This document shows, in pieces, positions 51,905-52,044 of a stretch of DNA of 64,000 nucleotides. Positions within the stretch are counted from its first letter, which is position 1. Every line of letters begins with the position of its first letter. The notes beneath the pieces were generated by a model, which worked only from the letters and a program-made list of their open reading frames with translations, was not told the DNA's origin and made no database searches. The translations under genes and the position numbers were made by a program. The stretch is from an uncultured Bacilli bacterium (GTDB lineage Bacteria > Bacillota_I > Bacilli_A > RF39 > UBA660): the NCBI GenBank assembly GCA_934167885.1, contig CAKPMB010000007.1, positions 612 to 64,611 on the forward strand, read 5' to 3'.

Positions 51905-51918
51905 ATTTCACTCCACAT

Positions 51919-51944
51919 AAAAGAACAAGACATAATCTTGTTCT
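51919..51944 (-). terminator. Rho-independent terminator-like hairpin 12 nt upstream of the 844-aa gene RBS
   Basis: AGAACAAGA-cataat-CTTGTTCT 9-bp perfect stem followed by TTTT on the minus strand. Confidence 0.6.
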
Positions 51945-51988
51945 ACCACATTTACACTCTAAATTAGGTCTGTTACTTAATAAAGTAA

Positions 51989-51997
51989 CCCCCCCCC
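51989..51997. repeat. C9/G9 homopolymer tract
   Basis: Nine consecutive C residues in an otherwise AT-rich intergenic region, just after a GTTACTT-aata-AAGTAAC hairpin. Confidence 0.9.
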
Positions 51998-52000
51998 ATG

Positions 52001-52044
52001 TTGACACTATTTGACACTATGTTTTTGACATTATTTAACACTGT
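52001..52044. promoter_or_regulatory. Four 10-bp direct repeats TTGACACTAT / TTGACACTAT / TTGACATTAT / TTAACACTGT
   Basis: Read directly. The last two repeats overlap the stop codon of 52031-52822; the repeats lie 100-140 bp upstream of the 844-aa gene. Confidence 0.6.

Follow-up and report, generated by a model that had tools for sequence, protein, structure and literature searches.

The locus described here raises the question of what a run of nine guanines does just upstream of a gene for a large, predicted surface protein. The window, that is, the whole stretch of DNA analyzed, comprises 64,000 nt of contig CAKPMB010000007.1 (assembly GCA_934167885.1, positions 612 to 64,611) from an uncultured Bacilli bacterium of the GTDB lineage RF39/UBA660. 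The region of interest contains, in minus-strand order, the end of a 263-aa gene of the Vut_1/YhhQ type, a gap of 126 nt and an open reading frame (ORF) of 844 aa; all features are described in this minus-strand reading and located by plus-strand window coordinates (Table 1). A first-pass annotation of the region had proposed that the homopolymer is a phase-variation switch of the classic slipped-strand kind, that a nearby hairpin makes expression conditional on read-through, and that a series of direct repeats binds a regulator. Our analysis indicates that the tract is probably a slippage switch located in a transcribed leader and acting on read-through. For its specific mechanism we put forward, tentatively, a frame-gated attenuator operated by slippage within a short upstream ORF. 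In the complete form of this proposal, to be taken with somewhat more reserve, a hypermutable G tract in an upstream ORF of approximately 22 codons would gate both a terminator and a start-site hairpin, and would provide a heritable on/off switch for each paralog of a gene family.

All the elements listed in the first-pass annotation are present in the sequence: the homopolymer (C9 on the plus strand), two hairpins, four phased 10-mers, a GGAG motif and the ATG of the 844-aa gene. The G9 tract is the only run of seven or more G or C residues in the 64-kb window, the next longest being 5 nt. It is followed by a small hairpin (hairpin 1) that begins with the final G of the tract, with a spacer between tract and hairpin of only 0-2 nt. 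The intrinsic-terminator-like hairpin located further downstream (−12.2 kcal/mol, z = −4.2) was the sole site of this kind found by the terminator scan within 1 kb, against 0.1 expected. This terminator lies 44 nt from the tract and 27 nt from hairpin 1, the latter interval having been estimated earlier at approximately 40 nt; likewise, the distance from the terminator stem to the GGAG motif is 7 nt instead of the 12 nt initially given. The 10-mers start at positions 52001 and 52011 (exact copies), 52025 (one mismatch) and 52035 (two mismatches), with a spacing of 10/14/10. A single 10-mer with two mismatches occurs in the window at chance level (130 found vs 111 expected); the phased cluster of four is a non-chance arrangement, conserved in 15 related copies of the region. 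As previously noticed, two of the repeats overlap the end of the upstream gene: the third one contains the stop codon of the Vut_1-type gene (52031-52033), and the fourth is located in the coding end of that gene.

The region proved to belong to a leader cassette, about 215 nt in length, located directly in front of each close paralog of the 844-aa gene that was seen, whatever the gene upstream. These paralogs form a family of predicted exported proteins of roughly 850 aa, with a beta-sandwich fold, in uncultured Bacilli of low GC content from the gut. A profile search with the upstream region retrieved 15 full and 2 partial copies of this cassette, next to at least eight different upstream genes, including TrxB-like, RluA-like and QueH genes and a tandem paralog. 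Comparison with an nhmmer profile built from promoter-bearing cassettes indicates that the window region corresponds to the 3′ two-thirds of the cassette, its promoter-bearing first third being absent. Four types of cassette were distinguished: the close type (window, W), the BRZ type (loci L005-L011 and L069), the Lapin type (L019 and L052) and that of L082. They share a common layout, consisting of phased GTYAAC units, a G8-G10 run, a spacer of 45-55 nt, a strong hairpin with a U run and a ribosome site. The sequence 3′ of the tract is unalignable between types, and the terminator hairpins, unrelated in sequence, occupy the same position. This conservation of the layout in four types with unrelated hairpins bears out the earlier observation of a terminator placed between promoter and ribosome site.

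The long G run is tightly associated with these cassettes. In 572 kb of related loci that were fetched, 24 G runs of at least 8 nt were found, all of them on the sense strand and all inside cassettes, and no C run of 6 nt or more was present. Furthermore, GGG is the rarest glycine codon in nine neighboring genes, where it accounts for 4.8% of Gly codons. Given the presence of G8-10 in four types, the location of all 24 long runs and the rarity of GGG, the homopolymer itself, rather than glycine, appears to be conserved and under selection. Tract lengths, taken from assembled consensus sequences, were found to vary. The window and locus L001, a Hadza contig representing a second assembly of the strain, show 0 mismatches over 8,535 nt, the sole difference between them being G9 vs G10; L001 and L002 are 97-100% identical to the window, with ORF, Shine-Dalgarno (SD) sequence and leader intact. 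The paralogs of the metagenome-assembled genome (MAG) BRZ_ES_bin28 contain G8 in three cases, G9 in one, a frame-keeping G9 produced by a T-to-G change, and G10 in a copy split by an insertion. The tract is thus mutable but strongly centered in assembled consensus. With lengths of G8-G10 among paralogs and G9/G10 across assemblies, the description of the homopolymer as specific, conserved, length-polymorphic and tied to the surface-protein gene holds.

The promoter scan revealed no −35/−10 pair flanking the tract, and the hexamers found around it at sigma-70 spacing by direct reading are a poor match in every type. Promoter readings of the extracytoplasmic function (ECF) type and of the Pho-box type, judged by eye, showed a poor or inconsistent fit at the tract across types and were discarded. 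Most close paralogs carry a sigma-70 promoter, P1, about 105 nt 5′ of the tract (TTGAAT-17-TGaTAAAAT). In locus L107, the scan located P1 at 9798-9826, with the terminator at 9961-9983 and the ATG at 10001. The corresponding promoter of the BRZ type is TTGAAT/TTGAAA-17-TAAAAT, found by the scan at 2205-2233 in L011. The hexamers of P1 are conserved, its spacers and upstream flanks differ, and it lies 5′ of the upstream ORF in both close and BRZ types. Since P1 is located about 105 nt upstream in the paralogs, the repeats and the G tract would be contained in a transcribed leader, at about +55 to +90, with the tract itself at about +80. A G switch of the promoter-sited kind was thus not supported, and the idea of conditional read-through was kept as a sound inference from the terminator layout. 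Only 12-40 nt separate the terminator from the ribosome site in the close, BRZ-short and Lapin types, too little for a promoter to fit, so that read-through is required for expression.

The order promoter, leader ORF, intrinsic terminator and structural gene was found in L107 and L011, and the window contains all of these elements except the promoter. The window copy and those of L001, L002 and L104, which represent the same locus, are devoid of P1, the end of the Vut_1 ORF replacing the first third of the cassette; the same Vut_1-cassette junction is present in those three loci. No terminator was found between the Vut_1 gene and the cassette, and the window copy is presumably transcribed by read-through from that gene. 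In other copies, a second sigma-70 promoter was observed between the leader terminator and the gene: in L005, L006 and L008 it lies about 60-110 nt 5′ of the ATG (TTGAAT-17-TATATT), and in L082 at 613-641 (TGtTAAAAT). Tract length is most varied (8, 9 and 10) in copies with a second promoter.

Repeats and tract are contained in an upstream ORF of 22 codons (GTG TTA AAT AAT GTC AAA AAC ATA GTG TCA AAT AGT GTC AAC ATG GGG GGG GGT TAC TTT ATT AAG TAA). In this ORF the direct repeats read as codons of a VSNSVN stretch, and the G tract would encode its Gly-Gly-Gly. The proposal that the repeats are regulator-binding sites upstream of a promoter was therefore not upheld, as they are located in the leader predicted to be transcribed and within a short ORF with its own SD-like motif. 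An AGGR motif is present 53-56 nt 5′ of the tract in W and BRZ cassettes. In L082 the motif AAGGTG is followed after 6 nt by a TTG start, and in the BRZ type AGAAGGG is followed after 12 nt by an ATG. The homologous ORF of the BRZ type (ATG TTA AAT AAT ..., translated as MLNNSRNKVNSMSTMGGV) has the start MLNN and the same 15 codons before the Gly run. The frame of the upstream ORF is open in 12 of 14 close cassettes; in L002 and L110a, 1-nt deletions 5′ of the tract put the GTG out of frame. In the BRZ leader of L011 (2240-2345), the upstream-ORF SD region, AAAUUAGAAGGG, could form a helix with UUUUUCUAAUUU, located 17-30 nt 3′ of the tract; this helix would be long-range and enclose the tract, and both of its strands are invariant among paralogs.

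The reading frames that leave the tract differ widely in their extent. In all types, the resident frame meets a stop codon within 4-25 nt of the tract; of the remaining two frames, only one gets as far as the terminator or beyond it. For the close type, this long frame extends 95 nt past the tract, crosses hairpin 1, the terminator, the SD sequence and the AUG of the gene, and stops at a TAG (51894-51896) located 7 nt after the AUG, in the 5′ arm of the start-site hairpin; it is open in 14 of 14 close cassettes. Long frames of BRZ cassettes end at +64 to +124, in the terminator 5′ arm, its loop, its 3′ arm, or past the gene AUG. That of the Lapin type (+52) ends 2 nt before the hairpin, and that of L082 (+64) in the loop. 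Two copies are already in the long frame: L008, with G9 where its siblings have G8, and L110a, by virtue of its 1-nt deletion 5′ of the tract. All four BRZ copies without the second promoter are in the G8-equivalent frame.

The RNA elements were also analyzed by folding. The start-site hairpin begins 1 nt after the AUG and, together with flanking pairs, encloses it (−19.6 kcal/mol, z = −4.0). In 15 cassettes, 99% of its alignment cells are paired, with two compensatory GC-to-AU pairs in L110a, a level reached by 17 of 500 shuffles. The BRZ, Lapin and L082 types have no such hairpin. Where it occurs, in the close type, it probably limits translation initiation, and the position of the long-frame stop inside it would amount to a translational-coupling geometry. 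The terminator-like hairpin has 99% of cells paired (12 cassettes) and forms in both minimum free energy (MFE) and centroid structures. For hairpin 1 the value was 97.6%, with four substitutions leading to G-U wobble pairs and two breaking a pair; for both of these hairpins the sequences within a type are too conserved for a covariation signal. The SD motif GGAG is kept in 14 of 15 aligned close cassettes, the 1339-aa paralog L110a having GGTG. Three G residues of the tract are able to pair with a CCU just 3′ of hairpin 1, and the consensus folds pair 3-6 of its G residues with a downstream segment, CCU in the close type and ACCGCC in the BRZ type. An alternative antiterminator, including a pairing of the G run with a pyrimidine arm as in pyrG, appeared in neither MFE nor centroid folds. 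Also rejected were a classical −1/+1 ribosomal frameshift site, for which the spacing from tract to hairpin 1 is too short, and an inverton, as the interval 51300-53000 holds only short AT-rich chance inverted pairs, none of them flanking the switch region. Rfam 15 gave no match at gathering score in the window, and a search of 51800-52200 up to E 10 returned only chance-level hits (E ≥ 0.6).

From the observed anatomy, conservation, polymorphism and frame geometry we infer translation of the upstream ORF, ribosome-polymerase coupling and the tract length that corresponds to the on state. The leader RNA would comprise, in order, an SD motif and the upstream ORF ending in the G9 codons, the small hairpin, the terminator, and the SD and AUG of the gene within a further hairpin. 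With G9 or G10, the upstream ORF would stop 4-6 codons past the tract and the ribosome would leave, allowing the terminator and the start-site hairpin to form and the gene to be silent. If the tract were one G shorter or two G longer, the ORF would cross the terminator, SD and AUG and end 7 nt inside the gene. A ribosome translating this long frame would block formation of the terminator, as in pyrBI and rph-pyrE attenuation, and would open the start site, leading to translational coupling. Slippage at the tract during replication, and possibly during transcription, would in this way provide each paralog with its own on/off gate.

Table 1. Features of the 844-aa gene, its leader and the adjoining gene, in plus-strand window coordinates
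Feature	Coordinates	Strand	Description or basis
844-aa family gene	49370..51904	-	ORF; N-terminal membrane anchor or signal
Start-site hairpin	51861..51901	-	Folding; AAGACUAGG (codons 2-4) pairs with CCUAGUCUU (codons 12-14)
Long frame after loss of one G or gain of two	51894..52041	-	Translation of the G8 variant
Cassette homology extent in window	51898..52049	-	nhmmer match only from model position 73 of 225
ATG of 844-aa gene	51902-51904	-	
Shine-Dalgarno GGAG of 844-aa gene	51911-51914	-	Read in sequence; 6 nt 5′ of ATG
Intrinsic-terminator-like hairpin, AGAACAAGA-TTATG-TCTTGTTCT + TTTT	51918-51944	-	Terminator scan; stem 51922-51944, 9-10 bp
Hairpin 1, GTTACTT-TATT-AAGTAAC	51972-51989	-	Predicted by folding; 7 bp
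Upstream ORF, 22 codons	52041..51973	-	Translates to (M)LNNVKNIVSNSVNMGGGYFIK
G9 homopolymer (C9 on plus)	51989-51997	-	Candidate slippage tract
Four phased 10-mers, TTGACACTAT (plus strand)	52001-52044		Minus-strand units GTGTYAA / ATGTCAA, within upstream ORF
Vut_1/YhhQ-like membrane protein gene, 263 aa	52031-52822	-	Pfam PF02592; 3′ end runs into cassette
Shine-Dalgarno-like AGGAG	52050..52054	-	Read in sequence; 8 nt 5′ of upstream-ORF GTG

The 844-aa protein showed no sequence match in Pfam, NCBIfam or PDB. Its AlphaFold2 model is beta-rich, mostly beta-sandwich, with an N-terminal hydrophobic anchor and a pLDDT of 70.8, and a structure search with this model returned only generic Ig-like or beta-sandwich matches (TM about 0.1). 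In a metagenome protein collection, 216 homologues were found. A genome-collection scan with the single 844-aa protein gave no match, and a search of viral contigs gave none either. Family loci were found by an alignment-based genome scan, which yielded 62 of them in GTDB species-representative genomes; single MAGs carry at least 10 copies, often at contig ends. The hosts of the family are all MAGs, labelled as uncultured Bacilli, Erysipelotrichaceae, Tenericutes or Firmicutes, and come from human (Hadza, BRZ) and rabbit guts. Close paralogs are 94-95% identical over residues 1-370 and only 40-57% identical over residues 371-844, which points to a variable surface-protein profile with a homogenized 5′ end. 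Some copies are disrupted: the gene of L104, which is the window's locus in another sample, has a premature stop after codon 627 (L104:3330-3460), and L105 (1560-1700) and the close paralog fragments P0043 and P0046 have a frameshift near codon 525. The L104 stop and the L105 frameshift may reflect gene decay or further switching sites.

Several other observations concern the cassettes. The paralogs L022, L023, L024, L026, L041, L045 and L049, from rabbit-gut MAGs, have no G cassette, and palindromes adjoin their promoter; a small divergent ORF upstream is, judging by eye, what we take to be a regulator of the helix-turn-helix type. These paralogs represent a different mode of control within the same family. 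Assemblies break in or at the cassette in L019:1, which starts with a G9 run, L052:1-35, L105:1 and L106:1, and this fits a repeated or heterogeneous sequence there. In the BRZ-type cassette of L005, an insertion of 435 bp (1884-2318) lies directly 3′ of the G10 tract. It is bounded by perfect terminal inverted repeats of 21 nt (CAATGTAGTCAACTTAAGAAA), is accompanied by a target duplication of 11 bp (GTCTAAACCGC), and looks like a mobile element of the miniature inverted-repeat transposable element (MITE) type.

A number of observations weigh against a frame-gated attenuator with a heritable tract. Tract length is one of them: 14 of 15 close cassettes have exactly G9, which resembles a conserved length more than a drifting contingency tract, and under the proposed scheme all G9 close cassettes except L110a would be off. 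An error in assembling the homopolymer could account for the G9/G10 difference between the window and L001. In promoter-bearing close cassettes, the ATGATG closest to the SD starts a third frame, which ends 33 nt ahead of the tract, so that the ORF containing the tract must start at the GTG 11 nt from the SD, or by re-initiation. In the G9 close type the long frame has an ATG of its own at −22, without an SD, and the assignment of tract lengths to on and off states is ambiguous. Counts of synonymous vs non-synonymous changes revealed no frame with a coding-type substitution pattern. In addition, when the sequences were shuffled, 28-66% of the trials for a given cassette left some frame open as far as the hairpin, and a transplant test gave P of about 0.10-0.12 for the long frame surviving the observed variation; over both kinds of test, P for the long frame was about 0.1-0.5. 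Next to the tract, all four types have the pair GTYAAC-N5-GTYAAC whatever the reading frame, which suggests a signal at the nucleic-acid level outside the model. The second promoter of L005, L006, L008 and L082 would make the gate dispensable in those copies. Furthermore, close coupling of ribosome and polymerase is not universal in Firmicutes.

Alternatively, the tract could be a transcribed spacer or structural RNA element and the upstream ORF not be translated, an explanation that we consider unlikely overall. Tract length would then tune the structure of the leader, the spacing between the terminator and a factor (for instance an antiterminator or a NusG-paralog loader) that binds the GUYAAC repeats or hairpin 1, or processing by an RNase, as in hmw1A. 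The location of the tract in the 5′ leader, the pairing of 3-6 G with downstream sequence in consensus folds, the predominance of G-U wobble changes in hairpin 1, meaningful only in RNA, and the GTYAAC pair abutting the tract regardless of frame are all consistent with it, and 5′-untranslated repeats that act through RNA structure have been documented (PMC12721329). However, a G run that exceeds its C partner in length is able to slide, which would make the pairing insensitive to a change of one G; the folds contain no alternative antiterminator pairing, there is no Rfam family, and a candidate binding protein was not found. Action at the RNA level also leaves unexplained why the upstream ORF has a conserved SD and start, and why the start-site hairpin contains the stop of the long frame. 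Rather less probable is that G9 has a fixed functional length and that no heritable switch exists. The tract would then be a site of programmed transcriptional slippage or ribosomal frameshifting, with a constant or nucleotide-pool-dependent fraction of ribosomes entering the long frame, or the leader would simply be conserved, its terminator serving as an insulator and partial attenuator. The predominance of G9 in the close cassettes and the uniform G8-equivalent frame of the BRZ copies with a single promoter agree with a fixed length, as does the fact that lengths 8, 9 and 10 occur in BRZ copies with a second promoter, which are independent of the gate. The length is also conserved near that of the 8-9-bp RNA-DNA hybrid, as is typical of programmed slippage sites. 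Against it, the length differs between two otherwise identical assemblies and among paralogs, G9 DNA is expected to be unstable in replication anyway, and the 0-2 nt between tract and hairpin 1 do not provide a classical frameshift context.

The model of the first-pass annotation, with a switch in or next to a promoter as in vlp, porA, fim and tpr and with 10-mers bound by an OmpR/PhoB-type regulator, now appears very improbable. The repeats are indeed direct, phased at 10-11 bp and similar to TTGACA/TTAACA boxes, the absence of P1 from the window copy makes another promoter possible there, and a TAnnnT-like hexamer (TACTTT) follows the tract in close and Lapin types. These features are outweighed by the lack of a flanking −35/−10 pair, by the poor hexamers around the tract, by the distance of about 105 nt to the promoter of the paralogs, and by the location of the repeats downstream of P1 and inside an ORF. 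Only slightly less improbable is that the window contains a promoterless silent copy, whose hairpin ends the Vut_1 transcript and which is expressed only after recombination or conversion with an expressed paralog. The cassette homology that starts at 52049, without P1, would fit such a copy, as would the L104 stop and the L105 frameshift, and conversion would be permitted by the identity of approximately 95% over the 5′ cassette and the N-terminal 370 residues. Nevertheless, the window, L001 and L002 (97-100% identical) all have an intact ORF, SD and leader, and the leader is probably transcribed, there being no terminator between Vut_1 and cassette. A silent copy would in any case be compatible with a frame-gated attenuator, as the two are not mutually exclusive.

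The proposed frame-gated attenuator has close parallels in pyrimidine gene regulation. At pyrBI and rph-pyrE of E. coli, the polymerase passes the attenuator only if a ribosome follows it closely. The cassette resembles these systems in having a promoter, a translated leader or upstream ORF (here predicted) and an intrinsic terminator just 5′ of the structural gene. In E. coli K-12, the rph-1 frameshift in the upstream ORF lowers read-through of the pyrE attenuator (PMC11148124); a frameshift leading to an early stop would similarly lower downstream expression here. Unlike the accidental frameshift of rph-1, the site in the cassette would be a built-in hypermutable G tract. In addition, the start-site hairpin would add translational coupling, the unit is placed before each of many paralogs, and there is no evidence of nucleotide sensing. 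In cwpV of C. difficile, the OFF state has been proposed to form a leader terminator 60-70 nt past the start, through which the ON state reads, and switching occurs by RecV-mediated DNA inversion between inverted repeats (PMC2784873). Both cases involve a surface-protein gene of a Firmicute, with the promoter upstream of the switch and a terminator in the leader, but no inverted repeats flank the region studied here, whose variable element is a homopolymer.

Phase-variable genes with simple repeats offer a second group of comparisons. The uspA1 gene of Moraxella catarrhalis contains a poly-G in its transcribed 5′ leader. In H. influenzae hmw1A, heptamer repeats make up one side of a long hairpin that RNase III cleaves, and the level of expression follows the number of repeats (PMC12721329). 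As in these two adhesin genes, the simple repeat is located 3′ of the promoter and 5′ of the surface ORF, and would act after initiation. Unlike hmw1A, the tract lies inside a short ORF followed by a terminator, only 3-6 G pair with a short CC(U)/ACCGCC, and an effect with a period of three is predicted. In the vlp genes of Mycoplasma hyorhinis a poly-A is located in the promoter spacer, and in tpr subfamily II of Treponema pallidum a poly-G is located at the promoter. These systems share with the present family the existence of many paralogous surface genes, each with its own homopolymer in a conserved 5′ region, in low-GC, Mollicutes-like or host-associated organisms. They differ in that their tract lies between or next to promoter hexamers, whereas none flank it here. 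Neisseria pilC, hpuA and opa-type repeats are examples of phase variation in coding regions. There, as in the proposed mechanism, the frame set by slippage determines if translation goes on, and at any given moment the majority of the copies in a family are out of frame; in the cassette, however, the shifted ORF would be, instead of the surface-protein gene, one of 22 codons, whose only apparent role is the position at which the ribosome stops. Literature searches for a phase-variable leader ORF or attenuator revealed no precedent combining slipped-strand variation with leader-ORF attenuation. Taken singly, homopolymer phase variation, attenuation by a leader ORF and terminators in the leaders of phase-variable genes are all known; what lacked a precedent in these searches was their combination.

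The window contains further features related to the family or its surroundings. A 263-aa ORF on the minus strand (37364-38155) has a domain of about 115 aa with 31% identity to residues 48-162 of the 844-aa protein, and sits in a row of small same-strand ORFs (cluster 35516-40428). Also on the minus strand, 53292-58394 and 44666-46417 encode a coupling protein of the VirD4/CD1115 type, a lipoprotein, a 728-aa SpoIID-like/C39-like protein and a HerA-type ATPase; these genes flank housekeeping genes for HU, the CCA-adding enzyme and FtsY. This gene set may be the remnant or edge of a conjugative element beside the family gene. A segment of 139 nt (5777-5915) is 98.6% identical to L104:4084-4222, which lies directly 3′ of the disrupted family gene of that locus, and this suggests a rearrangement or a repeated segment between strains. 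For the 263-aa Vut_1 product, an exact look-up gave no match, and gene callers start this gene one codon later.

The strict association between long G runs and this gene family is robust and needs an explanation even if the upstream-ORF mechanism is wrong. Should the mechanism be true, it would represent a new wiring of contingency loci, in which mutation takes place in a tiny upstream ORF instead of in a promoter or in the gene itself. The signature formed by SD, short ORF, GTYAAC-N5-GTYAAC, G8-10 and terminator could be counted in metagenomic reads, and would allow switching to be followed in vivo without culture. A true mechanism would also mean that a large repertoire of variable surface proteins, with a conserved N-terminal and a variable C-terminal module, is maintained by uncultured, Mollicutes-like Bacilli in human and rabbit guts; this repertoire would be likely relevant to the evasion of immunoglobulin A (IgA) or phages.

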